NCBI GenBank assembly: GCA_020444245.1
Contig: JAHLLI010000026.1
Span: forward strand, 643 to 64,642
DNA: 64,000 nucleotides
Direction: 5' to 3'
DNA from: Actinomycetales bacterium
Lineage (GTDB): Bacteria; Actinomycetota; Actinomycetes; Actinomycetales; Cellulomonadaceae
A program made the translations under genes and the position numbers. A model generated the notes under the pieces. That model saw only the letters and a program-made list of their open reading frames with translations, was not told where the DNA came from and did no database searches. Positions 35,334-49,799 of this stretch are shown here, one piece after another (the stretch's first letter is position 1; every line of letters begins with the position of its first letter).

Positions 35334-35930
35334 CTATGCGGTGCGGTCGAACCCCAGGCCGGGCCGAGCACCGTCGACCTCGACGCGGTCCAGCCAGGGT
35401 GCGCGCCGACGGATCATGCTCTCGAGCCGCGCGTGCACGGTCAGAGCGGCGGCGGGGCAGCCGTGGCACGTCCCGGTCAGTCGTACCGTGACGGTGTCGG
35501 GGCCGACGCCCAGCAGGTCGATCCCGCCGCCGTGACCGGCCGCGTATGGCCCGACCGTGGTCTCCAGGGCCTCGCGCGCGGCGCTCTCGAGCGCCGCGCG
35601 GCGCGCCTCGGGGTCGGACGGCCCACCGGCCGCGCACGCCGTGGCCGCCCGCTGGGCGGCGTCACGCACCGCCGCGGCGTGGTCGGCCCACGCGAGGTCG
35701 GGCGCCAGCGTCACGCGCGCGGCCCCGGGGAGCGCCGTCACGCACGTCACGACGGCGCTCGAGGTGAGCGGCGCGAAGGCGTCGTCGAGTGCATCCTGCC
35801 AGCCGGGTCCCGTGCTGCCGTGCCCGGCTCCGAACCGCCACAGCACGGTCCCGGGGTCCTCGGTCCGTTCGGGGTGCACGGGTACGGTGCCCTGCTGAAT
35901 GGCCGGACCGTGCATGGTGGTAGCCGTCAT
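35334..35930 (-). CDS. NfuA/NifU-like Fe-S carrier protein (198 aa)
   Basis: ATG overlaps feoB stop (ATGA); HGGGIDLL...VRLTGTCHGCPAA NifU C-terminal CxxC motif. Confidence 0.85.
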   Translation of the reverse strand: MTATTMHGPAIQQGTVPVHPERTEDPGTVLWRFGAGHGSTGPGWQDALDDAFAPLTSSAVVTCVTALPGAARVTLAPDLAWADHAAAVRDAAQRAATACAAGGPSDPEARRAALESAAREALETTVGPYAAGHGGGIDLLGVGPDTVTVRLTGTCHGCPAAALTVHARLESMIRRRAPWLDRVEVDGARPGLGFDRTA

Positions 35931-37870
35931 CCGAGCACCGCCGCGACCACGGTACGGGCGACCCATGCCATCAACCACGCCAGGGTGCCCATGTAGGCGA
36001 ACGCGAGCGCCGGCCAGCGCCACGAGTTGGACTCGCGGCGCATCACCGCGATGGTCGCGAAGCACTGCAGGGCGTACACGAAGAACACCAGCAGGGCCGC
36101 GATCGTCGGCGCGTCGAACAGCGCCTCGCCGGCGCCCGGCCCATCGGTCCGGGTCAGCTCCGCGAGCGCGCCGGCCGGGTTCTCGGGGTCCTGCGCCGCG
36201 GCGACCTGGCCCATGGTCGAGACGAACACCTCGCGGGCCGCCATCGCGCCGATCAGGCCCACGTCGATCCGCCAGTCGAAGCCGAGCGGTTCGAACACCG
36301 GCTCCACCGCGTGGCCGATCGACGCGGCCCAGCTGTGGTCGAGGACGTAGGCGGACGCCTCGGCCGGCGCCATGCCCGCAGTCTCGACCGGCCGGGCCGG
36401 GAACGAGATGAGCGCCCAGAGCACCACCGTGGCGATCAGGATGACCGTCGCCATCTTGCGCAGGAACGCGCCGACCGTCGTGCCGACCGTGCGCAGCACC
36501 GTTCGCCCGGACGGCATCCGGTACGGCGGCAGCTCGAGGTAGAACGGAAGGCCGCCGCCGCGCAGGGCGGTCTTGGTCAGCACGGCCGCGGCGACCAGAG
36601 TGGACAGGCCGCCCAGCAGGTACAGCCCGAAGAGCACCAGGCCCTGCGCGCCGAAGGGGCCCCAGGTGGCGCCGGCAGGCACCAGCATGCCCACGAGGAG
36701 CAGGTACACCGGCAGCCGGGCCGAGCAGGGCATCAGCGGCGCGGCCATCATGGTCGCGAGGCGGTCGCGCGAGGACGGCATCGTGCGGGTCGACATGATC
36801 CCGGGGATCGCGCACGCCACCGACGAGAGCATCGACACGAACGCCCGTCCGTCGAGCCCGGTGACCGCCATGACGCGGTCCATGAGCACGGCCGCGCGCG
36901 CCAGGTAGCCCGAGCCCTCGAGCAGCGCGAGCAGAACGAAGAGCAGGGCGATCTGCGGGAGGAAGACCAGCACCCCGCCGACGCCCCCGATCAGGGCGGT
37001 GCCGACGAAGTCCGCGAGCAGCGGCTGGGTGATCGCGCCGGCGGCAACGCCGGCGAGCGCCGCGAACGCCTGCTCGACGAGGCCCTGCAGCGGCGCCGCC
37101 ACGACGAAGATCGTCTGGAAGAACGCCGCCATCACCAGACCGAACGTGAGGACTCCGGCGACCGGGTGGAGGAGCACCCGGTCGATGCCTCGTGAGGTCC
37201 GTGGCAGCGAGGCGGCGCGGTAGCCGACCGCGGCGAGCACGGAGTCGCTCCAGGCCGCGAGCTGCTCCTCGTCGTCGACCGGCGGCGGGACCACGGGGAG
37301 CGGCCAGGTGTGCCAGGCCAGGATCGCCTCGCGCAGGGCGGGGATGCCGCGGCCGCGGTGCCCGACGACCTCGTGCACGGGCATGTCCAGGGCGCGGGCG
37401 AGGGACTGGGCGTCGACGTCGCCGCCCCGGGAGCGCAGCTCGTCGACCATGGTGAGTGCCACGGCGCACGGTCGGCCGCTCGCGGCGGCCTGGGCGACGA
37501 GCGACAGCGACCGGCGCAGCGTGGTCGCATCGACCACCAGGACGAGCGCGTCGGGCGCGTGGGCACCCGGCAGCCGTCCGGCCAGGTGGTCGGCCACGAC
37601 CTGCTCGTCCGGGCTGACGGGCGTCAGGCCGTAGGTGCCGGGCAGGTCGGTCAGGGTCACGCCGGTCGCCTCCGCACCCGCCCCGCCCGCCGCCTCGATC
37701 CGCCCGGAGGCCCGCGTGACGGTCACCCCGGGGTAGTTCGCGGTCTTCACCCGCAGGCCCGTGAGGTGGTTGAACACGCTCGACTTGCCGGCGTTCGGTG
37801 CCCCGACCAGGGCGACATCGACTCCGACCACGGGCGCTCCTGGCCCCTGGTCGTGGCAGGTGGCAGTCAC
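35927..37870 (-). CDS. feoB: Ferrous iron transporter B (647 aa)
   Basis: G1 GAPNAGKS, G2 NYPGVTV, G3 DLPG, G4 variant TMVD; GIAC-like ACAIPGIMSTR, PCSARLPVY, ELPPY, YALQC; GTG overlaps feoA stop. Confidence 0.95.
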   Translation of the reverse strand: MTATCHDQGPGAPVVGVDVALVGAPNAGKSSVFNHLTGLRVKTANYPGVTVTRASGRIEAAGGAGAEATGVTLTDLPGTYGLTPVSPDEQVVADHLAGRLPGAHAPDALVLVVDATTLRRSLSLVAQAAASGRPCAVALTMVDELRSRGGDVDAQSLARALDMPVHEVVGHRGRGIPALREAILAWHTWPLPVVPPPVDDEEQLAAWSDSVLAAVGYRAASLPRTSRGIDRVLLHPVAGVLTFGLVMAAFFQTIFVVAAPLQGLVEQAFAALAGVAAGAITQPLLADFVGTALIGGVGGVLVFLPQIALLFVLLALLEGSGYLARAAVLMDRVMAVTGLDGRAFVSMLSSVACAIPGIMSTRTMPSSRDRLATMMAAPLMPCSARLPVYLLLVGMLVPAGATWGPFGAQGLVLFGLYLLGGLSTLVAAAVLTKTALRGGGLPFYLELPPYRMPSGRTVLRTVGTTVGAFLRKMATVILIATVVLWALISFPARPVETAGMAPAEASAYVLDHSWAASIGHAVEPVFEPLGFDWRIDVGLIGAMAAREVFVSTMGQVAAAQDPENPAGALAELTRTDGPGAGEALFDAPTIAALLVFFVYALQCFATIAVMRRESNSWRWPALAFAYMGTLAWLMAWVARTVVAAVLG

Positions 37871-38145
37871 CGGACGAGCACCAGCTCGGCGAGCGGGCGA
37901 CGCAGGCAGAGGTCCGTCTCGCCGATCCGGTAGACGACGGGCGAGCCGAGCGGCGCCCGGCGCACGCACGTGACCGGGGTCCCGGCGGTGAAGCCGAGGT
38001 CGCGCAGCCGGCAGCGGACGGCCGTGTCGCAGTCCTCGCAGATCCCCGCGACCGTGGCCTGCTGACCGGCGCGCATCGTCGACAGCCGGTCGGCGGGGAC
38101 GGTTCCCGCGGGATCGGGTGCCGTGCTGAGGGGAGCCGCCTGCAT
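37867..38145 (-). CDS. feoA: Ferrous iron transport protein A
   Basis: RLRDLGFTAGTPV...APLGSPVVYRIGETDLCLRR. Confidence 0.93.
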   Translation of the reverse strand: MQAAPLSTAPDPAGTVPADRLSTMRAGQQATVAGICEDCDTAVRCRLRDLGFTAGTPVTCVRRAPLGSPVVYRIGETDLCLRRPLAELVLVR

Positions 38146-38301: not shown

Positions 38302-39114
38302 ATGGAGCAGTCGATCTCGTTCGCCGACGCCGAGCTGGCACTCCTTGCCGACCTCCTCGGCGAGTCGTTCCCCAGGCAGCTCGGCGCCGACCACCATCGC
38401 GCCGCGACGAGCGACGCCCGGCGTGGCGCCGAGTCCGCGCTGCGGCGCCGCGGGGTGGTCGTCGACACCGACGCGGGGCGGGCCGAGGTGGTCCTCACCG
38501 TCGCCCGACTGGTGCAGATCCTCAGCCGCCCCATGATCAGGATCGACATCGGGGTCGGTGCCGGCACATGGGCCGCCGGTTCCCACCACCTGGCCGTCGG
38601 GCCACGCGTCGGCGTGGAGGCCGCGCGGGTCGAGGGCGGCTATCGGTTGACGCCGTTCGCAACGGGCGGCCTGGTCCGGCGGATGGCTGAGCGCGCCCGG
38701 ATCGGCGACGTGATCCCCGGGCCGCGTCCGGTGAGCCTGCCGTCGTCGTGCCTGGTCGCCGTGTCGCGTGCGGGCGACCCGGCGCGAGCGCGCGCCGAGC
38801 TGGCGGATGGGCTGCGCGACCGCGACCGGGACCTGACCGACGCCCTCACCGACGCCTTCGCCGGCCGCAGGACCGTGGTCAGCGTTCGGAGCCGGCCGGT
38901 GACCGGCCGGGCCGGCGGGCTCGAGCTCGCCTGGGTCGGCGCAGCCCGAGGGGCGTGGGAGGTGCCGCCCGCGATCACCGAGCCCGGCCCGGAGATCGAC
39001 GGCACGACCACCGCCGAGCTCGAGCCGATCGGCGCGGAGCGGCTGCTCACCGCGATCCGCGGCTCGATCGAGTGGCTCGCCGAGTCAGCCCCGGTGGGTG
39101 GGCGCCGACGCTAG
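38302..39114 (+). CDS. Hypothetical protein, possibly EspG-like T7SS chaperone (270 aa)
   Basis: Precedes WXG100 genes; AESALRRRGVV...VARLVQILSRP pattern recalls EspG family; TAGCAT -10 at 38261. Confidence 0.5.
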   Translation: MEQSISFADAELALLADLLGESFPRQLGADHHRAATSDARRGAESALRRRGVVVDTDAGRAEVVLTVARLVQILSRPMIRIDIGVGAGTWAAGSHHLAVGPRVGVEAARVEGGYRLTPFATGGLVRRMAERARIGDVIPGPRPVSLPSSCLVAVSRAGDPARARAELADGLRDRDRDLTDALTDAFAGRRTVVSVRSRPVTGRAGGLELAWVGAARGAWEVPPAITEPGPEIDGTTTAELEPIGAERLLTAIRGSIEWLAESAPVGGRRR

Positions 39115-39151
39115 CCTGAGTCCAGCAGTCGACTACGAGAAGGGCACGGGG

Positions 39152-39415
39152 ATGCCACTCATCGGTGGAGAGCTCGACGAGCTGGCCTCGCTGAAGGCGA
39201 CGTTCGACCGCGAGGGCAACCTCGTCGCGGATGTTCTGTCGACGATCCGTTCGCAGCTCGGGAACACCTACTGGGAGGGGCCCGCCGCGGCGCGCTTCCG
39301 GGAGACCTGGCAGAGCGAGTTCGAACCGATGCTCCAGCGTCTGCAGACTCAGATCTCCGAGGCGGGCACCGAGATCGCCCGTCGTCGTGAGGCGTTGCAG
39401 CGCGCCGGGTCGTGA
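39152..39415 (+). CDS. WXG100 family protein (87 aa)
   Basis: Central YWEGPAAARFRETW motif; helical hairpin size; purine-rich SD; TAGCCT -10-like hexamer at 39112. Confidence 0.9.
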   Translation: MPLIGGELDELASLKATFDREGNLVADVLSTIRSQLGNTYWEGPAAARFRETWQSEFEPMLQRLQTQISEAGTEIARRREALQRAGS

Positions 39416-39427
39416 GCCGGGACGGGC

Positions 39428-39685
39428 ATGGCTGACGCAGCCGCGCTCGAGTCCGCAGCCGCAACCCTGATCGCCCGGGCCGAGGACCTCGCCTACCTCG
39501 GTGACCAGATCGTGCTGCACGGCACTCGCGCGCACTGGGAGTGCGCCAAGGCGGACCGGTTCAGGGAGGCGATGGTGGCCCGCCGCCGGGAGTCGTCGCG
39601 GGTGGCGTTCGAGATGCGCGAGCTCGGCCGGGCGGTGCGGGCCCGCGCGATGGCCGCGGAGGCCGTCGAGCAGGCGGGGACCTGA
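39428..39685 (+). CDS. WXG100-like protein with WEC variant motif (85 aa)
   Basis: Central HWECAKADRFRE aligns with YWEGPAAARFRE of the upstream gene. Confidence 0.7.
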   Translation: MADAAALESAAATLIARAEDLAYLGDQIVLHGTRAHWECAKADRFREAMVARRRESSRVAFEMRELGRAVRARAMAAEAVEQAGT

Positions 39686-39686
39686 C

Positions 39687-41246
39687 GTGCCGACCCGGGT
39701 GGTGGTCGACACCGACTCGTTGCGGACCACCGCGCGGTACCTCCAGGGCGCCCTCGACCAGCTCACCCTGATCCGGCAGTCGTTGACCCAGGTCGGCGCC
39801 GTGGTCGACACCGACGCCGACCAGGCGACCCGTCGCCTGGCGATCCTGGCCTGGGTCGAACGGCTCGGTGCGGCGCTCACCGAGGACCACCGGGCCCTGG
39901 CGCAGGAGATCATGGAGCTCGAGGCGCAGGAGGGCGACCCACCGGCCGGCTTCGCCGAGAAGGCGGCCGGCGGCCCGACCGGCGCGGCCGCGAACCTGGT
40001 GCTCCTGCCCACGATCGGCTCCCTCGTGCTGCGCCGCATCGACGGCCCACCCGAGCCGCCGCCGGAGCCGTGGGACGAGTCCTGGGTGAACCCGGACGGG
40101 AGCGTGCCCGCCGGGCCCACCACCGCGGGGTCCGGGTCGCAGACCGGGGCCGCCCCGGGCAGCGGCTTCGGCTCGCAGTGGGACGACCGCGAGGAGTCCG
40201 CCGAAGGGCAACCCGGTGGCTCGGGGGGTGCCGGCGGCGGGGGCGCCGGCGCGTCCGGCAGCGTGACCTTCGACGTGGACGCCGACGCCGACGCGGACTC
40301 CTACGCCGGGGCCACCGATGGCGGCGGCTACGCCGCGGGGGCCTCCGCCGAGGCCGGAGTCGGCGTCCACGGACACGTCGACGGGGAGTTCGACGCGGGG
40401 GCGCTCAGCGGCTCGGCGCAGGCGGACGCGTCGGCGCAGGCCTGGGCGGGCGCCCACGCCGATGGTCAGGTGGGCCCCGACGGGCTCGACGCATCGGTGG
40501 GGGCCTCGGCCGGTGCGACGGCCGGCGTGGAGGCGAGTGGCTCGGTGGACCTGGGCCCGGTGTCGGCCGGCGGCCAGGCGCACGCCGAGGCCGGTGCGCA
40601 GGCCCACGGCGAGGCGAGCGCTCACGCGGGGCTCGACGGCGTCGACGGCTCTGCGGGCGCCGGTGCGTTCGCGGGTGCGGAGGCGGGAGCGAGCTACCAG
40701 GCCGGTGTCGGCGACTCCACGGTCGGCGGCGGCGCGGGCGCCCGGGCCGGCGTCGGCGCCGAGGTCCACGCGTCGGCGGGGATCGACGGCGAGGGGGTGG
40801 GCGTCAGCTTCGACGCCGGAGCGGCGCTGGGCGTCGGCGTCTCGTTGGAGGTGGATGTGCACCTCGACTGGAGCGACCTGGACGTCACAGAGTGGTTCGA
40901 CGGCGACTCCGGCGCCCCGGCGGCCGGACCCACCGCCCCTGCGGCGCCTGCCGATGCGCAGCCGCCCGCGGCCGAGCCGGAACCGGTGCTCGGGACCCCG
41001 GCGCACCGAGACCCCGGTCCGCAGCTGCACCGGTGGGCGCCCGACATCGGCCCGGGCCGGCCGGAGGTGTCGGCCGTCCCGCACCCGCCGCTCGCCGCGG
41101 ACGCGGGGCTCACGCCGTCGGTGCAGGGGCCGTCGCTCGTCCCGCCGCCCCCGGACGGGTTCGTCGGTGAGGCGGCGCGCGCGCCGTCACCGCCGGGTCG
41201 CCCCGACCTGTCCGCGGTGCTCGACCGCCTCATGCCCTCCCACTGA
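39687..41246 (+). CDS. Putative T7SS substrate: helical N-terminus, Gly/Ala beta-repeat domain, Pro-rich tail (519 aa)
   Basis: GTG 1 nt after previous stop; VVVDTDSLRTTARYL N-terminus typical of WXG100-like leaders; alternating G/A repeats ~40257-40880. Confidence 0.7.
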   Translation: MPTRVVVDTDSLRTTARYLQGALDQLTLIRQSLTQVGAVVDTDADQATRRLAILAWVERLGAALTEDHRALAQEIMELEAQEGDPPAGFAEKAAGGPTGAAANLVLLPTIGSLVLRRIDGPPEPPPEPWDESWVNPDGSVPAGPTTAGSGSQTGAAPGSGFGSQWDDREESAEGQPGGSGGAGGGGAGASGSVTFDVDADADADSYAGATDGGGYAAGASAEAGVGVHGHVDGEFDAGALSGSAQADASAQAWAGAHADGQVGPDGLDASVGASAGATAGVEASGSVDLGPVSAGGQAHAEAGAQAHGEASAHAGLDGVDGSAGAGAFAGAEAGASYQAGVGDSTVGGGAGARAGVGAEVHASAGIDGEGVGVSFDAGAALGVGVSLEVDVHLDWSDLDVTEWFDGDSGAPAAGPTAPAAPADAQPPAAEPEPVLGTPAHRDPGPQLHRWAPDIGPGRPEVSAVPHPPLAADAGLTPSVQGPSLVPPPPDGFVGEAARAPSPPGRPDLSAVLDRLMPSH

Positions 41247-41257
41247 CCGGAGCCTCC

Positions 41258-41737
41258 ATGGACCTGTCCTACCCGAGCGCGGACTTCCCCGGGCCGCCGT
41301 CCTTGACCGTGGCCGTGCCCGACGGCTGGGTGCGCCTGGACCAGGCGGACACCGTGGTCGCGGCCGTCGACCCCGCCTCGCCGCAGGGCGCGGCCACGAC
41401 GTTCCTGGTGACCGTCGCCCGGGTGGTCGGCGAGCAGGACCTCGACGGTCTGGTCGGGCGTCAGGTGAGCGTCGCGGCCGAAGGGCTGGGTGCCACGGTC
41501 GAACGCCAGCGGCGCGAGCAGGTCGCCGGTCTCGACGCGGTCTGGTCGGCGTTCAGCCTCCCGGCACGCAGCGACCGTCCGGTGAGCCTGTTCCAGGCCC
41601 AGACGGCGCTGCTCGTGCCGCGGCGGCCGCGGGTCCGCGACCTCGTCACGATGGTCGCGACCTGTTCGGCCGATCTCGCGCCACGCTACGGCGAGGTCTT
41701 CCGGGAGATCTTCCTGAGTCTGGCCCTGGAGGTCTGA
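41258..41737 (+). CDS. PsbP/DcrB/LpqN-like soluble protein (159 aa)
   Basis: GGAG SD; LTVAVPDGW, then beta-rich Q.ALL...LVTMVAT...FREIFLSL pattern; no signal peptide. Confidence 0.6.
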   Translation: MDLSYPSADFPGPPSLTVAVPDGWVRLDQADTVVAAVDPASPQGAATTFLVTVARVVGEQDLDGLVGRQVSVAAEGLGATVERQRREQVAGLDAVWSAFSLPARSDRPVSLFQAQTALLVPRRPRVRDLVTMVATCSADLAPRYGEVFREIFLSLALEV

Positions 41738-41740
41738 CCC

Positions 41741-44700
41741 TCATCCCAGCCGGGCGACCTGGACGTAGTCCACGATGCCGCGGTCGACCAGCAGACCGCG
41801 CCCGGCGGGGAACCGCCGCGAGGCCCGCCGTGGGAACCGGAGGCCGAACAGGTCACCGTCGGTGTCGACGTCGGGCGTCAGCACGATGCCGTGCTTGCCC
41901 TTGCGCAGGTCGGTCGCCCACCCGCCGAAGGCGCGGTGCGCGGTGTGCGTGCCGAGCGCGGCGAGCACCACCAGGTCCAGATCCCGCCCCGTGCGGATCA
42001 GGGTCGACAGTGCCGTGGCGTTCGGGGAGTCCACGAGCTCGTCACCGTCGTCGACGACCACCAGCCACGGACGCCCGGGGGTGGTCCGGCGCTCGCGCGC
42101 CTGGTCCGCCAGGCGCCGGGCCAGGTCGTCGCTCGCCTCCGTCCCGCGGGCGACCTCGTGCCACCACGGTCGCTCGGCCAGGGGGGTGCGCCGTGGCGCG
42201 AGCAGGTAGCACTCCAGCTCGGGGCGTGCTGCGACCAGACCCGCGGTCAGCGTCTCCAGCGTCGTGGTGCGTCCCGAGAGTGCCGGTCCCAGGACCGCGA
42301 ACACCGGGTCCTCGCCCATGTCCACGCCGACGGGACCGTGGCTGATCCCGGAGATGCCGATCGGCACGGCCGAGAGCGTCGGGGCAGCGACCGGCAGGTC
42401 CGAGGTTCGGATGTCGTCCCCCAGGACCTCCACAGCAGGGGGACGGACGGCGTCGGCCCCGCCCGGCCGCGACCGCACGGTGGCGCCGAGCCGTTCCAGC
42501 GCGAGCGCCTGGCCCGCGCCGGAGGCATCGTCGCCGAGCATCGCGATCTGGACCTCGGAGCCCTGCGCGAAACCCCGACCGGGCGGGAGCGTCGTGTCCG
42601 CCAGCGCCGACGGCAGGCCGAGTGAGGCGTAGTCGTTGCCTTCGGCCATCCGCAGGACCACCCGCTCGCTGACCGCGCTGGACAGCGTCGACGGCACCGC
42701 GTTCGGCCGGTCCGCCGTCACCACGAAGGTCACGCCGACCGCTCGACCACGCGCGACGAGCCGGTCGAAGCGCTCGACGAGCTCACCGCGGTCGACGTTG
42801 AGGTAGGTCTGGCGGAAGGCGGCGAAGCCGTCGAGCAGCACCACCACGTAGGGCAGCCGCCCACCGCCGGCGCGCAGCTCGGCGAGGTTCGACGCCGCAG
42901 CCTCGCTCAGCCTCCGGGTGCGCCGCGCCACGAGCGCGTCGAGCATGTCGAACAGCCGGTCGACGCGCTCGGACTCCTCCGCCGCCACGACCCCGCCGAC
43001 CTGTGGCAGGGCCACGAGCGGCGCCAGACCCCGCCCGGCGAAGTCGAGGCCGTAGAGCTGGATGTCGGCCGGGTCGAGTCGCGCTGCCAAGGACGCGGCC
43101 ACGGTGCGCAGCAGCTGGGTCTTGCCCGCTCCACCGGTGCCGAAGACGAGCACGTGGCCGTGGACCTCCGGGTCGTACCAGTGGATGTCCCTGGCCTGGC
43201 GCTCGGGCCTGTCCACGAGGCCGAGCGGTGCGGCAGCTGCGGTGAGTCCCGCGGGTGCTGCGGCGTCGAGCAGGTCGGCCAGGTCCACCCGGTCGGGAAG
43301 CGGGTCGAGCCAGGGCCGCGGCTGGTCGGGCACCCCGGCTGCGACGTGCGCGGCCCGGATCGCCGTCACGAGGCGTTGCAGGTCGGTGGGCCGCTCGTCG
43401 TGGACCTCGCGGACGCCGGACGAGGTGGCCCGCAGACCCGACCGCACCTCGAACGGTGTCACCGTGGTGGGCTGACGGGTGGCGCCGCGCTGCTGGGACC
43501 GGGCGCTCGCGTACGCCGACTGCACCAGCGTGACGTCGGTGTGCCCGAGGCGGACGTACCCGCGGCCCGGCAGGCCCTTGGGGATGCGCGCGGCGTCGGG
43601 GCGGTCGAGCACGTCACTGCTGTCCTGCTCGTCGGCCATCCGGAGCGCGATGCGCAGGTTCGTGTTCGCCCGGATGCTGTCGTCGACCACGCCCGCCGGA
43701 CGCTGCGTCGCCAGCATCAGGTGCACCCCGAGGGACCGACCGCGCTGTGCGATGTCGATGACGCCGGAGACGAACTGCGGGACCTCCTTCTTGAGGAAGG
43801 CGAACTCGTCGAACACGAGGAACAGGCTGGCCGGCGCCGCGGCCGGGAACCGCTGCTCGAGCTCCGGGAGGTCCTTGCAGGAGTGCTCTCGCAGGATCTC
43901 CTCGCGGCGGCGCAGCTCGGCGTTGAGCGACACCAGCGCACGGCTCGCCAGGTGGGCGTCCAGGTCGGTGAAGAACCCGACCGTGTGCGGGAGATCCACG
44001 CAGTCCTTGAACGCCGCGCCGCCCTTGTAGTCGATCAGCACGAACGTCAGCGCCGAGGCCGGATGGGTGGCAGCGAGGGCGCCGATCCACGCCTGGAGCA
44101 GCTCGCTCTTGCCCGATCCGGTGGTGCCGGCGGTCAGGCCGTGCGGACCGTCCCTGCGGAGGTCGACGACCACCGGTCCGGCGGCACCCTCGCCGAGCGG
44201 GGCGCCCAGATCACCCGTCCCGGCATGGTCGGACCATCGGCGGCGGATGGCGTCAGGGTCGGGTTCGGGCAGCCCGAGCAGGTCGAGCAGCAGGACGCGG
44301 CGCGGCACCTCGCCCGAGGCCGAGCTCGCGCTCGCGTCGCGCAGCGGCGCCATCCGGCGCCCGAGATCGGTGGCCTGATCGCTGCCGAGCGCGTCGAGTC
44401 GGACCCCGGGCACGGTGTCCCCGGTGGCGGTCAGGGTCACCGAGCCGTCCGGACCGGCGGCGTCGACCACGGCGCGGCACTCCCCGGGGAGCTGCTCGAC
44501 CCCGCCCGCCCCGACCACCACGAGGACGCCGTGCCGAGGCCCATCGGCCATCAGCCGGGACAGCGCGGGCCGTGGGACCGGGATCGGTCCGGGCACGACG
44601 ACGAGCACGACCGGGTGCGCCGTCTGGTCGCCGACACCGCGCTCGGCGCGCAGCCGGCGCTGGACGACCAGGTCGTCGACCACCTGGAACAGCGCGCGGA

Positions 44701-46132
44701 CGTCGTCCTCCTGGCACGCGACGCTGCGTCCGCCCGGCAGGCCCTGGAGCAGGGTCTCGGTGTGGGGGAGCCATCGCAGCCAGGACCACGACGGGCCGTC
44801 GTCGGGCAGCAGTCCCACGATGGCCAGGTCCTTGGGGCTGTGCAGCGCGGCGGCCTGGAACGCGATCCACCGCAGCAGCGCGTCGCGTGCGGTCGGGTCG
44901 CCGGCGACGCCCAGGACCCCGACCGTCGGCAAGCCGACGTCCACGGGCACGGCTGGGTCCGTGGCGTGGGTGCGCGCGAGCTCCTCGGCTCGCTCGAGGT
45001 CTGCGGGGTCGGGCGTCGCGTCGGGATCGGCGGCCGCGACTGCGACGTCGACCACGAGCCTGGAGGGCAGGTCGGCGGTGCCGATCCGCACCGTGAGGAA
45101 GTCGGTGTCGTCGGGCCGGCGCTTCCAGAGCCGCGGGCTGCGCGAGTGCACCCAGCCGGCCAGCTCGGCGAGGTTGGGCGCGTCCGCGCGTCGGGCGGCG
45201 AGCAGGTCTCGGTAGGTCCCGTCGACCTGGTCGGACAGCTGGGCCAGGGCCGTCTCGTAGGCGGCGCGCCGGGTGGCGTAGTCCCGGCGCCCGCTGCGGC
45301 GGTCCTCCCAGGTCGAGGCCACCAGGACCAGCGGCCCCATGAGGGCGAACAGGAGCATCACGGGACCGAGGAAGTAGGCGAGGACCCCGCCCACGAGCAC
45401 CGGCACCAGTGCGGCGCTCAGGGGGATGCGCCGTCGGGGCGGCTTCTGCGGCGGTGCGGGCACCTGGATCCGTCGAGGGATGTCAGGTCTGGCCACCCGG
45501 GGAGGCCGCGAGAAGGCGTCGCGCCCGTCGGCGCGCCGGACCGAGGCCGTCGCGGTGCCCCGCGCCGGTTCGATGGTGAGCTGGGTCGAGCCGATCTCCA
45601 CCACCTGTCCGGCCAGCACGGGGGTCGGCTCGTCGAGCCGTGACCCGTCGAGGAACGATCCGTTGCTGGAACCGGCATCGGTCGCGACCACGGACTTCGA
45701 GCCGACGCCGAGGTGCAGGTGGCGACGGCTGATCCGCTCGTCGTCGAGCACGATGTCGGCCGAGGCGTCCCGACCGACCAGGTACCCCCGGCCTGCCACG
45801 AGGGGCTCGCGGCGACCCGCACCGGGCCCGGCGGCGACGCACAGCTCGAACGCGGCCGGGGTGCGGGTGGCGTCGCTGGAGGTGCCCGTCGGTGCGGTCC
45901 CCGGCACGGTCAGCTCGACCGTGTCACCGTGCGCGAGACCGAGCTCGGCGACCGGCCGCGCCGGATCGATCCGCGCGCCGGTCGGACTGACCCAGCCGTC
46001 GACCTCGCCGACGCCACCGGTCGCGTCACGAAGGGCGGCGAGCAGCTCGGCCGCCGGGCTGGCCGGGTCCACCTCGACGCGCACCTCACGCGGGGTCCGG
46101 CTCGGGCCCGTGACGACCAGCAGCAGCTCCAC
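41741..46132 (-). CDS. EccC/EssC-type FtsK/SpoIIIE ATPase with N-terminal ubiquitin-like and FHA domains (1463 aa)
   Basis: Ubl-like first ~80 aa (LGLAHGDTVEL); FHA VGR/ISRRH/SSNGS; two TM helices; ATPase 1 GTTGSGKS/FDEF, ATPase 2 GTGGAGKT/LDGF, ATPase 3 GPALSGRT/VDDGD. Confidence 0.92.
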   Translation of the reverse strand: MELLLVVTGPSRTPREVRVEVDPASPAAELLAALRDATGGVGEVDGWVSPTGARIDPARPVAELGLAHGDTVELTVPGTAPTGTSSDATRTPAAFELCVAAGPGAGRREPLVAGRGYLVGRDASADIVLDDERISRRHLHLGVGSKSVVATDAGSSNGSFLDGSRLDEPTPVLAGQVVEIGSTQLTIEPARGTATASVRRADGRDAFSRPPRVARPDIPRRIQVPAPPQKPPRRRIPLSAALVPVLVGGVLAYFLGPVMLLFALMGPLVLVASTWEDRRSGRRDYATRRAAYETALAQLSDQVDGTYRDLLAARRADAPNLAELAGWVHSRSPRLWKRRPDDTDFLTVRIGTADLPSRLVVDVAVAAADPDATPDPADLERAEELARTHATDPAVPVDVGLPTVGVLGVAGDPTARDALLRWIAFQAAALHSPKDLAIVGLLPDDGPSWSWLRWLPHTETLLQGLPGGRSVACQEDDVRALFQVVDDLVVQRRLRAERGVGDQTAHPVVLVVVPGPIPVPRPALSRLMADGPRHGVLVVVGAGGVEQLPGECRAVVDAAGPDGSVTLTATGDTVPGVRLDALGSDQATDLGRRMAPLRDASASSASGEVPRRVLLLDLLGLPEPDPDAIRRRWSDHAGTGDLGAPLGEGAAGPVVVDLRRDGPHGLTAGTTGSGKSELLQAWIGALAATHPASALTFVLIDYKGGAAFKDCVDLPHTVGFFTDLDAHLASRALVSLNAELRRREEILREHSCKDLPELEQRFPAAAPASLFLVFDEFAFLKKEVPQFVSGVIDIAQRGRSLGVHLMLATQRPAGVVDDSIRANTNLRIALRMADEQDSSDVLDRPDAARIPKGLPGRGYVRLGHTDVTLVQSAYASARSQQRGATRQPTTVTPFEVRSGLRATSSGVREVHDERPTDLQRLVTAIRAAHVAAGVPDQPRPWLDPLPDRVDLADLLDAAAPAGLTAAAAPLGLVDRPERQARDIHWYDPEVHGHVLVFGTGGAGKTQLLRTVAASLAARLDPADIQLYGLDFAGRGLAPLVALPQVGGVVAAEESERVDRLFDMLDALVARRTRRLSEAAASNLAELRAGGGRLPYVVVLLDGFAAFRQTYLNVDRGELVERFDRLVARGRAVGVTFVVTADRPNAVPSTLSSAVSERVVLRMAEGNDYASLGLPSALADTTLPPGRGFAQGSEVQIAMLGDDASGAGQALALERLGATVRSRPGGADAVRPPAVEVLGDDIRTSDLPVAAPTLSAVPIGISGISHGPVGVDMGEDPVFAVLGPALSGRTTTLETLTAGLVAARPELECYLLAPRRTPLAERPWWHEVARGTEASDDLARRLADQARERRTTPGRPWLVVVDDGDELVDSPNATALSTLIRTGRDLDLVVLAALGTHTAHRAFGGWATDLRKGKHGIVLTPDVDTDGDLFGLRFPRRASRRFPAGRGLLVDRGIVDYVQVARLG

Positions 46133-46148
46133 GCTCAGGCCCCCGTGC

Positions 46149-47870
46149 TCACGGGCGCAGGGCACATGCGACGGGCCCGGGCTGGCTCTCGACGAACCCC
46201 TCGGTCATGGCCGTGATCTCGTAGCAGCTCGTACCCGAGGGAGGCTCGTCGAAGTAGCAGTGCGGGAAGTCGATCCCGCACTGCGTGGTGTCGTCCCGGG
46301 GGACCTGGGCGACGACGGTCCAGGGGCCGGTCGTGCTGGTCGAGCGGTAGATGTTGTAGACGGAGGTGAACGACGACGTGGACTCCGACCAGACCACGGC
46401 GATCGTGCCCGCACCGTGCCCCGCGGCGTAGGTCGTCACGGGCGCCGTCGGCGCAATAGCGACGATCGACGGGAGCGGGGGCTTCAGGGTGAGCTTCGGG
46501 GTCGGCGCCACCGTGACGGTCGCCGTCGCGGTGGGCGTGGCCGACTCCGCGCTGGGTTCAGGGCTGGGCGTCGCGGTCTCGGTGGGGGTGGGCGTCGCGG
46601 TCTCGGTGGGAGTGGGCGTGCTGGTCGCCGTGCTCTGCTCGCTCGTGGTGCTGGTGTCGCTCGTGGGGATCGGCTCGGCGCCGACCGTGCCCTGCCAGGG
46701 CCTCAGCACCGCCACGGCGACACCGCCGCCGGCGAGCAGGACGGCCAGCGTCACGACGGCGACGAGCACGCCGGTGCGGGAGCGACGACGCGGGGGCGTG
46801 GCCGCGGCATCCGGGTTGGCGTCGCGGTCGCGACCTCCGGCCACCGTGGCCTCGCCGCCCACCGGCGCGGCGTGCCCGGTGAAGGCAGGCGGCGCGATGG
46901 TGGCTCCGGTCGCGGCAGCGCCGGCGGCGGGGCGCACGGTCCGTGCACCGACCGTCGTAGCGGCGGCGGGCGCAGGGCCGGGCGCGGCCGGCGGGGCGGC
47001 GGAGCCGACGATCATCTCCGTGACCGGGAGGCCGGAGTCACGCTGGGCGCGCTGGAGCAGCTCGCCGAACGCTGCCGCGGAGGCGGGCCGGTCGGCCGGG
47101 TCCTTGGCCATCGCGGCCGCGACCACCCGGCGAAGCGGCTCGGGGACCTCGGGCGGGAGCTCGGCCGGCGGGCTGTGCAGGACGTCGTCGACGAACACCG
47201 CGAGGCCGGTGTCCCCGGTGTGGGCGAACGCCGGCCGACCGGCGAGCAGCTGGTACAGCGTGGACCCGAGCCCGTAGACGTCGCTCGCCACGCTGGCGGG
47301 CTCGCCGCGCAGGACCTCCGGCGCCGCATGGCTGGGGGAGTAGGCCGCGGTGAGGCCGGTCGCCGAGACCCCGGCCACGGTCGCGATCCCGAAGTCGGCC
47401 AAGGCCGGCTCCCCGAACGCGGTGACCAGGACGTTCTCGGGCTTGAGGTCGCGATGCAGCACGTCGTGCTGGTGCGCGGTGTGCAGCGCGCCGGCGATCT
47501 TCACGCCGATCCGCGCGACGTCCTGCGCCGGCAGTGGCCCGGCGTGGAGCATGCCGGCGAGCGAACCGCGCTCGCAGTACGTCATCGACAGGTACGGCCG
47601 CCCGTCGTCGAGGAACCCGGAGTCGAGCACGGTGACGATGTTGGGGTGGCCGGTCAGCCGGCCGGTGATCGCCGCCTCGCGCTGGAACCGGTGGCGTGCG
47701 GCGTCATCGGCGATCCCGGCGTCGAAGACCTTGATGGCGACGTAGCGGTCCTGTGCCACCTGGCGGGCGCGCCACACCGACCCGAACGCACCGCGGCCGA
47801 CCTGCTCGGAGGGCTCGTAGCCATCGATCTGTGGTCCGACCGGATGGGGCACGCCCCCTTGGGTGCTCAC
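46149..47870 (-). CDS. Transmembrane Ser/Thr protein kinase with extracellular Fn3-like domain (573 aa)
   Basis: GRGAFG, VAIK, HPNIV, HRDLKPEN, DFG, APE all intact; TM VLVAVVTLAVLL; Thr/Pro stalk; VWS..YNIYRS..CYEITA; TAGGGT -10 6 nt before GTG. Confidence 0.93.
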   Translation of the reverse strand: MSTQGGVPHPVGPQIDGYEPSEQVGRGAFGSVWRARQVAQDRYVAIKVFDAGIADDAARHRFQREAAITGRLTGHPNIVTVLDSGFLDDGRPYLSMTYCERGSLAGMLHAGPLPAQDVARIGVKIAGALHTAHQHDVLHRDLKPENVLVTAFGEPALADFGIATVAGVSATGLTAAYSPSHAAPEVLRGEPASVASDVYGLGSTLYQLLAGRPAFAHTGDTGLAVFVDDVLHSPPAELPPEVPEPLRRVVAAAMAKDPADRPASAAAFGELLQRAQRDSGLPVTEMIVGSAAPPAAPGPAPAAATTVGARTVRPAAGAAATGATIAPPAFTGHAAPVGGEATVAGGRDRDANPDAAATPPRRRSRTGVLVAVVTLAVLLAGGGVAVAVLRPWQGTVGAEPIPTSDTSTTSEQSTATSTPTPTETATPTPTETATPSPEPSAESATPTATATVTVAPTPKLTLKPPLPSIVAIAPTAPVTTYAAGHGAGTIAVVWSESTSSFTSVYNIYRSTSTTGPWTVVAQVPRDDTTQCGIDFPHCYFDEPPSGTSCYEITAMTEGFVESQPGPVACALRP

Positions 47871-47965
47871 AGGTTCACCCTAGCGGCGGGGGACCGGGCG
47901 CCGGAGGGACCGAACGGGGGTTTGCCGGCGGGTCGGCGCCGACGATGGTCTGGGATGCTGGGCGG

Positions 47966-48586
47966 GTGCGCCTGTTCGCCTCGATCCGTCCACCGGGCCC
48001 CGTCCTCGACCACCTCCGTGGCGCGCTGCACACGGCCGCGACCGCGGACCTTCCGGTGCGGTGGACCGCCGAGGAGAACTGGCACCTGACGGTCGCGTTC
48101 TTCGGCGAGGTGCCCGACGGCGCCCTCGGCGAGCTCGGTGGGTCCTTGGGCCAGGTCGCGGGTGTCGCGGCGCCGTTCGAGCTGCGGCTGCGCGGTGCTG
48201 GCGTGTTCTCCGGGCGCACGCTGTGGGTCGGCGCGTCCGGCGACGACGGCGCGATGGCGGCCCTGGCCAGATCGGCGCGTGAGGCGGGCGAGATGGTCAG
48301 CGGCTTCCGCGACACCCGAGACCGGCACCGCGCTCACCTGACCGTCGGCCGGGTGCTCGACGACGGCTCCGCCGCGCGCCGCGCCTGCTCGCGCGACGGC
48401 CGGCGCGTACCCGGTGCGGTCGACCACCTGGTGCACGCGCTCGCGCTGTACGAGGGGCCGGCGTGGACGGTGGGTGAGCTGCTGCTCGAGCAGTCGTGGC
48501 CCGGCGGTGGGCGTGGCGGGGGGCCGCGCTACGAGCGGGTCGGCCGGTGGCCGCTCGGGAACGCGCCCCGCACTGTGGCAGGATGA
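47966..48586 (+). CDS. thpR: RNA 2',3'-cyclic phosphodiesterase (2H family)
   Basis: MRLFASI, WHLTVAF and AHLTVGR HxT motifs, LWVG. Confidence 0.85.
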   Translation: MRLFASIRPPGPVLDHLRGALHTAATADLPVRWTAEENWHLTVAFFGEVPDGALGELGGSLGQVAGVAAPFELRLRGAGVFSGRTLWVGASGDDGAMAALARSAREAGEMVSGFRDTRDRHRAHLTVGRVLDDGSAARRACSRDGRRVPGAVDHLVHALALYEGPAWTVGELLLEQSWPGGGRGGGPRYERVGRWPLGNAPRTVAG

Positions 48587-48644
48587 CCGCGTGGCACGCG
48601 GTGATCGTCGATTTAGCCAGCCCGCCGGTGGGCGGCGCGGCTGA

Positions 48645-49798
<1,154 letters not shown>

Positions 49799-49799
<1 letters not shown>

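Follow-up and report, generated by a model that had tools for sequence, protein, structure and literature searches.

The 64,000-nucleotide stretch analysed here (the window; contig C5 of G000, a 4.4-Mb, 99.4%-complete actinobacterial genome) carries a 9.6-kb cluster of seven genes in which a five-gene substrate arm converges on a machinery arm encoding a receptor-type Ser/Thr kinase and an EssC/EccC-type ATPase. [quoted passage not shown] In our judgement the locus is probably an accessory T7SS of a distinct lineage, here termed clade A and sister to a clade that contains the published T7SSd, and its motor would be gated by phosphorylation; we hold this explanation, taken as a whole, with moderate confidence.

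Composition of the gene cluster

The seven genes form two convergent operons, an arrangement backed by third-position GC content for 7/7 genes. On the forward strand, genes for an EspG-like protein, two WXG100-type proteins (WXG1 and WXG2), a Gly/Ala-repeat protein and an LpqN-like protein follow one another with intergenic gaps of 1–37 nt. On the reverse strand the kinase gene precedes the ATPase gene, which starts 16 nt past the kinase stop codon. The two arms meet tail-to-tail, with 3 bp between the stop codons at 41737 and 41741. A first-pass annotation, made from the letters of the window, had listed the same seven genes with the same coordinates and the same 3-bp spacing, and third-position GC agrees with it. 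The window has a GC content of 74% and the cluster shows no GC anomaly; gene calls and Pfam searches found no integrase, relaxase or replication gene within the cluster. Two generic hallmarks of a T7SS are present, namely a membrane-spanning FtsK/SpoIIIE-family ATPase with three tandem P-loop domains and a WXG100-family gene, WXG1, whose W-x-G motif is invariant. Within the cluster only the ATPase and the kinase have transmembrane segments, and all products belong to recognisable folds or families, the body of the Gly/Ala-repeat protein excepted (Table 1).

The ATPase is built from an N-terminal ubiquitin-like domain (Ubl), an FHA domain, a transmembrane hairpin and, past the hairpin, a stalk/DUF region followed by three P-loop domains with the Walker A motifs GTTGSGKS (residue 669), GTGGAGKT (998) and GPALSGRT (1282). 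Pfam recognises the FHA and FtsK_SpoIIIE domains. The NCBIfam models for EssC (578 bits), EccCa (410 bits) and EccCb (343 bits) each score just under their cut-offs, and the best PDB matches are Thermomonospora curvata EccC (279 bits) and Bacillus subtilis YukB (231 bits). Gly-120, Arg-121, Ser-135, His-138, Asn-157 and Gly-158 of the FHA domain, which make up the G-R, S-x-x-H and N-G motifs, are invariant in 17/17 orthologues. The closest structures are the phosphothreonine (pThr)-binding FHA domains of OdhI, GarA and CT664, and a profile of the ATPase N-terminus also matches OdhI/GarA-type FHA domains; the conserved residues suggest that the domain is pThr-competent. The linker between the Ubl and the FHA domain is rich in Thr (PTGTSSDATRTP).

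An AlphaFold2 (AF2) model of ATPase residues 1–215 (predicted local distance difference test, pLDDT, 84) places a β-grasp fold at residues 1–75, followed by the FHA domain. The Ubl has a β-β-α-β-β-α-β topology and a pLDDT of ~82–96. The N-terminal profile matches ubiquitin (E=1.3e-5) and the Rad23 Ubl, and the Pfam YukD family (PF08817) is sub-threshold, with E=0.043 for the window protein and 4.9e-4 for its L010 relative. A hidden Markov model (HMM) of the Ubl, trained on the N-termini of clade A and clade B (see below) only and with the test sequences left out (Z=1e6), scored 19 bits against the N-terminal Ubl of Streptomyces EccD (E=0.05–0.1) and a non-significant 6–11 bits against EsaB. 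An EsaB match of E ~1e-15 from an iterated Ubl HMM was rejected as circular, the targets being inside the model; leaving them out made it non-significant. Foldseek searches with the two-domain N-terminal model returned FHA matches only and were uninformative on the Ubl. The profile, the β-grasp model and the leave-out HMM together uphold the fusion of a Ubl to the ATPase, which the first-pass annotation had proposed. Elsewhere in the genome, a very divergent second three-P-loop FtsK/SpoIIIE ATPase of 1265 residues (G000 C11:236879–240676; L006:5880–9677, reverse strand) contains a weak FHA-like stretch and adjoins whiB, a PdtaS-type kinase and an FtsX-type ABC transporter, with no WXG100 gene nearby.

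The kinase matches Pfam Pkinase with E=1e-44. Its Hanks motifs are complete—GRGAFGSV (25), VAIK (44), HRD (139), DFG (159) and APE (183)—and by these motifs it is catalytically intact, as had been claimed at first pass. The juxtamembrane segment of 100 residues contains 10 Thr, and beyond the single transmembrane segment lie a Thr/Pro linker and an extracytoplasmic domain of ~100 residues.

The first gene of the substrate arm encodes a true EspG-family protein. Direct comparison with Pfam gave no match, and shallower searches yielded one relative only (word-indexed) or none in PDB (a 7-sequence profile). An HMM search of 1.84 billion representatives recovered 334 relatives, of which 91 were aligned; the resulting profile matches EspG1 (5vba, E=1.4e-6) and EspG3, and PF14011 is matched by 18/91 family members. 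The AF2 model (pLDDT 92.5) retrieved EspG structures as all of its top 15 Foldseek matches in PDB (E 6e-13 to 4e-9, TM-score ~0.6), structures of other kinds giving no significant E-value, and no transmembrane segment was found in the protein. WXG1 matches PF06013 (E=5e-5) and TIGR03930 (E=2e-6), both under cut-off, and its profile matches Staphylococcus aureus EsxA (2vs0, E=2.6e-4); across 18 loci it is 44–80% identical, with Trp-41 and Gly-43 invariant. The similarity of WXG2 to WXG100 proteins is marginal (PF06013 E=0.11 over the full length). Trp-37, Cys-39, Lys-41, Arg-44 and Arg-46 are invariant in eight WXG2 orthologues, so that W-x-C replaces W-x-G.

The Gly/Ala-repeat protein belongs to no Pfam family and has neither a transmembrane segment nor a signal peptide. 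Its helical head of ~90 residues (TRIVIDTDxLR...LEAxEG), conserved in 12 loci, is followed by a PWNxxWVxxDG motif, a G/A/D repeat body of ~250 residues and a Pro-rich tail. At three loci (L019, L026, L035) the head is joined to unrelated C-terminal bodies, a pattern expected of a secretion-targeting domain, and the protein is probably a secreted substrate. The last protein of the arm, called PsbP-like at first pass, has a profile that matches PDB 3lyd (E=2.7e-16) and, weakly, EagT6/PA0094 (E ~0.06); Lpp-LpqN (PF10738) is matched by 10 of its 16 orthologues (best E=4.2e-7). It has no signal peptide and no transmembrane segment, and is a cytoplasmic protein, probably an adaptor or chaperone. All genes of the substrate arm in the first-pass annotation (EspG-like, WXG100-type, Gly/Ala-repeat and PsbP-like) are present, WXG2 being marginally WXG100.

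The absence of EccB, EccD and EssA, noted at first pass for the window, extends to the whole genome, and no MycP was recognised there. EccB (PF05108) had no match in the genome at E≤0.1, with a positive control in Corynebacterium glutamicum, and tblastn with three EccB sequences found none either. PF08817 (EccD/YukD), its control likewise positive, matched nothing in the genome, nor did tblastn with Streptomyces EccD, with one Streptomyces S8 mycosin-like protein for MycP, or with EssA, EssB and EsaB queries from B. mycoides and L. monocytogenes. TsdH and TsdI have no counterpart in the cluster, and tblastn with Alloscardovia queries found none in the genome. No recognisable EsaA was seen in the genome, though EsaA was not among the tblastn queries, and EccE (PF11203) likewise lay outside the searches. 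Of the other known T7SS membrane parts that were searched for, none was found. No paralogue of the Gly/Ala-repeat protein is encoded elsewhere in the genome. The sole YhgE/Pip-like protein is on contig C26, beside an MMPL gene and unlinked to the cluster; a weak WXG100 match on C26 corresponds to this type of membrane protein next to the MMPL transporter and was rejected as unrelated. An orphan WXG100 gene (E=3.7e-14; G000 C32:70842–71159, reverse strand) lies beside groEL, far from the T7SS ATPases. On contig C6 (G000 C6:254340–259864) a CbxX/EccA-like AAA ATPase is encoded a few kb from a weak kinase-like match; it shares 41% identity with the AAA portion of a Nocardia EccA.

Table 1. Genes and domains of the cluster, in window coordinates.
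Feature	Position	Strand	Basis or remark
EspG-family chaperone, 270 residues, first gene of substrate operon	38302..39114	+	profile, fold
WXG1, WXG100 protein, 87 residues, motif YWEGPAA	39152..39415	+	alternative GTG start 39098
WXG2, WXG100-like partner, 85 residues, W-x-C-x-K	39428..39685	+	12-bp gap after WXG1
Gly/Ala-repeat protein, 519 residues	39687..41246	+	no Pfam family
LpqN/DUF1795(PsbP)-superfamily protein, 159 residues	41258..41737	+	profile matches
EssC/EccC-type ATPase, 1463 residues	41741..46132	-	alternative GTG start 46165
ATPase transmembrane hairpin, 42 hydrophobic residues	residues 235–276, ~45305–45430	-	
ATPase FHA domain	residues 93–210, ~45503–45856	-	Pfam, alignment
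ATPase Ubl	residues 1–81, ~45890–46132	-	AF2 and profile
Receptor-type Hanks Ser/Thr kinase, 573 residues	46149..47870	-	Pkinase
Kinase single transmembrane segment	residues 364–391, ~46698–46781	-	
Kinase catalytic domain	residues 18–265, ~47076–47819	-	

Between the kinase gene and pheS lies a 2H-phosphoesterase gene (47948–48586, forward strand) whose product is LigT/ThpR-like and has two H-x-T motifs. It was rejected as a part of the system; the third-position GC filter had overlooked it, its stop-to-stop frame overlapping the kinase start.

Lineage, conservation and insertion of the locus

Two trees of the ATPases, a quick one of 52 rows and a careful mixture-model one of 38 rows, gave the same picture; the latter included firmicute EssC, EccC of Streptomyces, Nocardia and Mycolicibacterium, and Bifidobacteriaceae TsdC. 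Clade A (98/98) holds the window ATPase, clade B (100/100) is its sister, and the two group together at 100/99. Members of clade B include FHA-FtsK ATPases from Streptomyces, Actinoplanes and Microbacteriaceae that adjoin WXG100 genes and genes for a 'putative T7SS-secreted protein', and the TsdC proteins of Bifidobacteriaceae (L076, P0157, P0161, P0166) are nested within it (100/100). The Alloscardovia locus among these (L076) has the published T7SSd layout of kinase, small protein, large immunoglobulin (Ig)-rich protein and ATPase. Firmicute EssC and EccC form separate long branches, and with EccC as the chosen outgroup the actinobacterial FHA clade likewise stands on a long branch apart from EssC. 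The first-pass suggestion that the locus may resemble the ancestor of T7SSb finds no support in this tree, which has nothing to put the lineage on the T7SSb stem. Clade A would, as part of the explanation we favour, be a lineage of its own, for which no name was found in the literature.

A set of 33–36%-identical ATPases (L036–L089), labelled 'FtsK/SpoIIIE domain-containing protein' by the Prokaryotic Genome Annotation Pipeline, was considered as canonical EccC and rejected, as true EccCa aligns over domain 1 only; these proteins belong to clade B. Clade-B Ubl-FHA-FtsK ATPases are also encoded beside WXG100 genes on a Streptomyces atratus plasmid (L090:2074–13056) and a Curtobacterium plasmid (L091:4084–12915), loci that have no EccB, EccD or kinase; the Streptomyces locus additionally encodes a 2029-residue 'putative T7SS-secreted protein'. 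The pairing of a clade-B ATPase with WXG100 seems to be a second minimal arrangement of T7SS-like type, and a widespread one.

T7SSd has been reported to lack a ubiquitin-like component. The leave-out Ubl HMM matches residues 1–79 of Alloscardovia TsdC (L076:7841–8080) with 36 bits (E=4e-7), and 15/16 Bifidobacteriaceae TsdC homologues (P0156–P0171) score 29–47 bits. Judged from these sequence-profile matches, the component reported as missing appears to be fused to the N-terminus of the ATPase in Bifidobacteriaceae.

A one-genome-per-species scan gave 80 homologous loci, whose gene order was compared by tblastn and clustering of open reading frames. Twelve of them (L010, L011, L012, L013, L014, L017, L018, L020, L023, L024, L028, L030) have the order kinase, extracytoplasmic function (ECF) sigma factor in some, ATPase, and then LpqN-like protein, Gly/Ala-repeat protein, WXG2, WXG1 and EspG. 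The gene order is common to ~20 loci from Propionibacteriales, Micromonosporaceae, Acidimicrobiia (Acidimicrobiales/Ilumatobacteraceae) and unclassified Actinomycetota, and in a distant subgroup (Gaiellaceae, Thermoleophilia) the kinase is on the opposite side. The sigma-70/ECF genes were located at L010:9369–9998, L012:9174–9860, L013:635–1342, L014:9443–9988 and L017:9306–10016; the window has none.

The first-pass annotation had made its reading depend on a conserved linkage of the kinase to the ATPase. A kinase gene lies within 10 kb of the ATPase gene at ~21/24 clade-A loci, the exceptions being loci with truncated flanks, and at 1 of ~50 loci of sister clade B. The neighbouring kinases of core clade A fall into a single clade (99/94) and branch as the ATPases do in their own tree; the linkage is therefore conserved, and kinase and ATPase have been inherited together. 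Chance adjacency is unlikely also because only 6–7 Ser/Thr kinase domains are encoded in the whole 4.4 Mb. The window kinase does not group with Alloscardovia TsdD in the kinase tree, in which the TsdD row is a long branch.

No ATPase more than 41% identical was found among 40 relatives, 24 congeners included, and close homologues of WXG1 occur in 2/400 evenly sampled genomes of the phylum. In three congeners (L111–L113) the order is g34855-ThpR-FeoB-pheS with nothing between, whereas the window reads FeoB-[cluster]-ThpR-pheS, FeoB and ThpR being swapped (35927–37969, 47948–49799). The cluster is thus an accessory insertion with local rearrangement. No repeats, tRNA or integrase were seen around the insertion when the window was compared with these congeners. 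Horizontal acquisition or differential retention is the best explanation, and we regard it as probable together with the reading of which it forms part.

Proposed phosphorylation gating and its alternatives

From this gene set we infer a phosphorylation-gated secretion motor. The ATPase would oligomerise, presumably as a hexamer like EccC, and its transmembrane hairpins would form the channel. The YukD-like Ubl would pack on its own FHA domain and the stalk/DUF region in the way seen for free YukD and YukB (PMC12637312). An extracytoplasmic cue may be sensed by the variable C-terminal domain of the receptor kinase, which would then autophosphorylate the Thr-rich juxtamembrane segment, phosphorylate the Thr-rich Ubl-FHA linker, or both; reading of the pThr mark by the FHA domain would lead to motor assembly or release. 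This FHA-pThr step would take the place of the contact between the EssB pseudokinase and FHA2 in T7SSb and would parallel PpkA-Fha1 of the Pseudomonas aeruginosa type VI secretion system (T6SS). The cargo would consist of the head-bearing Gly/Ala-repeat protein, whose competence for export the EspG-like chaperone and the LpqN/DUF1795-like adaptor would maintain, and of the WXG1/WXG2 pair.

Several points weigh against this picture. The third P-loop of the ATPase carries Arg for Lys, and both WXG1 and WXG2 score under the Pfam gathering thresholds. The extracytoplasmic domain of the kinase is unconserved past the closest relatives. A pore formed by the ATPase alone is without proof in any T7SS, and unrecognised partners may be encoded elsewhere in the genome. 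In Phytohabitans suffuscus NBRC 105367 (L030), the one complete cultured relative, the ATPase is in two frames. The frame switch there (L030:13312–13372) falls near ATPase residue 1116–1135 and is due either to an error of assembly or to a frameshift that has made the gene a pseudogene; this locus also has its substrate arm in another orientation.

A further point is the ECF sigma factor gene that separates kinase and ATPase in many relatives, since transcription could then be what the kinase acts on. The alternative that follows, unlikely but the strongest of those considered, is that the locus is a T7SS-type module whose kinase either phosphorylates the substrates or regulates the cluster at the transcriptional level, by way of the ECF sigma factor or of some other regulator, the FHA domain being a phospho-independent scaffold as in staphylococcal EssC. 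In Mycobacterium tuberculosis, phosphorylation of CFP10 reportedly occurs. A sigma-70/ECF gene occupies the interval at L010, L012, L013, L014, L017, L025 and L032, and the Esr pathway, a kinase/FHA signalling route that controls Esx, acts largely at the transcriptional level (PMC13622651). The window locus, however, has no sigma factor and a kinase-ATPase gap of just 16 nt, and the invariance of the pThr-binding residues across the clade would be needless in a purely structural FHA domain.

Somewhat less probable again is a system that depends on further parts, the Gly/Ala-repeat protein, unrecognised proteins encoded elsewhere, or both serving as channel or envelope conduit in a TsdI/EsaA-like role, so that the apparent minimality would be an annotation artefact. 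All T7SSs studied to date need partners besides the ATPase; the repeat protein is single-copy and kept in nearly all core clade-A loci, and its body, where small residues alternate with charged ones and GxDG turns occur, looks β-rich. The protein nevertheless lacks a transmembrane segment and a signal peptide, sits among chaperone-type genes and shares its head with unrelated bodies, which is a substrate-like trait, and neither paralogues of it nor known T7SS parts are found elsewhere in the genome.

It is very improbable that the ATPase serves a mobile island as its motor for DNA translocation or conjugation and that the WXG-like genes are incidental: FtsK/SpoIIIE-family motors do drive actinomycete conjugation and the cluster is inserted relative to the congeners, but the three tandem P-loops, the transmembrane hairpin and best matches to EccC, YukB and EssC rather than FtsK or TraB, the conserved WXG100 and EspG linkage, and a cluster free of mobility and replication genes all argue otherwise.

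Relation to known secretion systems

The phosphorylation-gated motor favoured here has precedents. T7SSc–j were defined by Garrett, Higginson and Palmer in 2024, in a survey seeded by a BLAST search with Brevibacillus EssC against RefSeq; the authors described FHA-ATPases in which the pThr motifs are conserved, along with membrane kinases that are active (TscD, TsdD, TseD, TsjD), proposed phospho-regulation of T7SSc/d/e/j, and listed T7SSd, made up of TsdA, C, D, H and I, as the actinobacterial variant, in Olsenella and Bifidobacterium (PMC11217815). The YukB-YukC-YukD structure of 2025 shows YukD held between the FHA and DUF domains, and in this core unit the pseudokinase docks on FHA2 (PMC12637312). 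A preprint on Esr (bioRxiv 2026) establishes experimentally that kinase/FHA signalling controls Esx in Schaalia, a member of the Actinomycetales (PMC13622651). According to Iyer et al. (2006), YukD domains of actinobacteria invariably occur in fusion with the 12-transmembrane protein (PMC1779556). The novelty that the first-pass annotation implied for a phospho-gated T7SS was overstated in view of T7SSc/d/e/j (PMC11217815) and Esr-Esx (PMC13622651). Since a T7SS with kinase and FHA-ATPase was published in 2024, the design principle is known, and what appears to be new is the lineage and the gene set. Clade A, its set of EspG, LpqN-like and repeat proteins, and the Ubl-ATPase fusion were undescribed in the papers found, subscription journals being outside coverage.

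T7SSs drive virulence and interbacterial killing. Clade A combines compactness with conservation, and cultured strains carry it, an intact example being Micromonosporaceae bacterium KJ-029. A variant with two membrane proteins, an inbuilt Ubl, a pThr-competent FHA domain and an active kinase inherited with the ATPase would be a compact system in which to test whether an EccC/EssC-type ATPase alone forms the pore, and in which to test the gating of secretion by Thr phosphorylation, so far proposed for T7SSc/d/e/j. The locus adds Acidimicrobiia, Propionibacteriales and Micromonosporaceae to the groups covered by the T7SS subtype catalogue, its repeat protein defines a new candidate targeting head for substrates, and the Ubl of TsdC offers an explanation for a subtype, T7SSd, reported 'without' this component. 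A bolder proposal, which we advance only tentatively, joins two elements: clade A would be self-sufficient, with the Ubl-FHA-ATPase and the kinase as its sole membrane parts; and a core of Ubl, FHA domain and kinase fold would be ancestral to all FHA-bearing T7SSs. As a corollary, the Ubl of T7SSd would be fused to TsdC. If true, clade A would be the simplest complete T7SS known, with the kinase still active and the Ubl still in cis.

Among known systems, P. aeruginosa H1-T6SS (PpkA-Fha1-PppA) and FHA-gated transporters such as Rv1747/PknF use a membrane Hanks kinase and an FHA reader to control how an export machine assembles or works. These machines are unrelated to that of the window, in which the FHA domain is inside the motor and the cluster contains no PP2C phosphatase. 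Esr resembles the window locus in that kinase and FHA signalling is tied genetically to an actinobacterial Esx system. It differs in its accessory genes, which accompany a canonical Esx system and of which the window cluster has none: a β-propeller sensor, MoxR, vWA, a kinase/phosphatase pair and an FHA protein that is separate.

With T7SSa/ESX the locus shares an EccC-like motor, an EspG-fold chaperone and a WXG100 pair, and its Ubl is weakly similar to the N-terminal YukD-like domain of EccD (19 bits). In contrast to ESX systems, EccB and EccD are missing from the window genome, no MycP was recognised in it and there are no PE/PPE genes, whereas the ATPase has a Ubl and an FHA domain, neither of which is found in EccC. 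T7SSb is similar in that three such modules come together at the cytoplasmic face: an ATPase bearing FHA, a ubiquitin-like domain and a bitopic membrane protein of kinase fold. The window Ubl, unlike that of T7SSb, is in cis and stands in for the first of the two FHA domains of EssC; the kinase is intact, the FHA domain keeps its pThr residues, the ATPase is outside the EssC branch and EssA is absent.

The closest likeness is to T7SSd. Both are actinobacterial and combine WXG100 proteins, an FHA-bearing EssC-like ATPase with a pThr motif and an intact membrane Ser/Thr kinase; neither has a free YukD/EsaB gene, EccB or EccD, T7SSd lacks EccE and none is seen in the window, and the ATPases of both appear to carry an N-terminal Ubl. 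The two differ in lineage, the window ATPase belonging to clade A and TsdC to clade B, and the window kinase apparently being of another lineage than Alloscardovia TsdD. TsdH and the Ig-rich TsdI of ~1400–1650 residues, both present at L076, are absent from the window locus, which adds to the shared core an EspG chaperone, an LpqN/DUF1795-like protein, a WxC partner and a head-bearing repeat protein.

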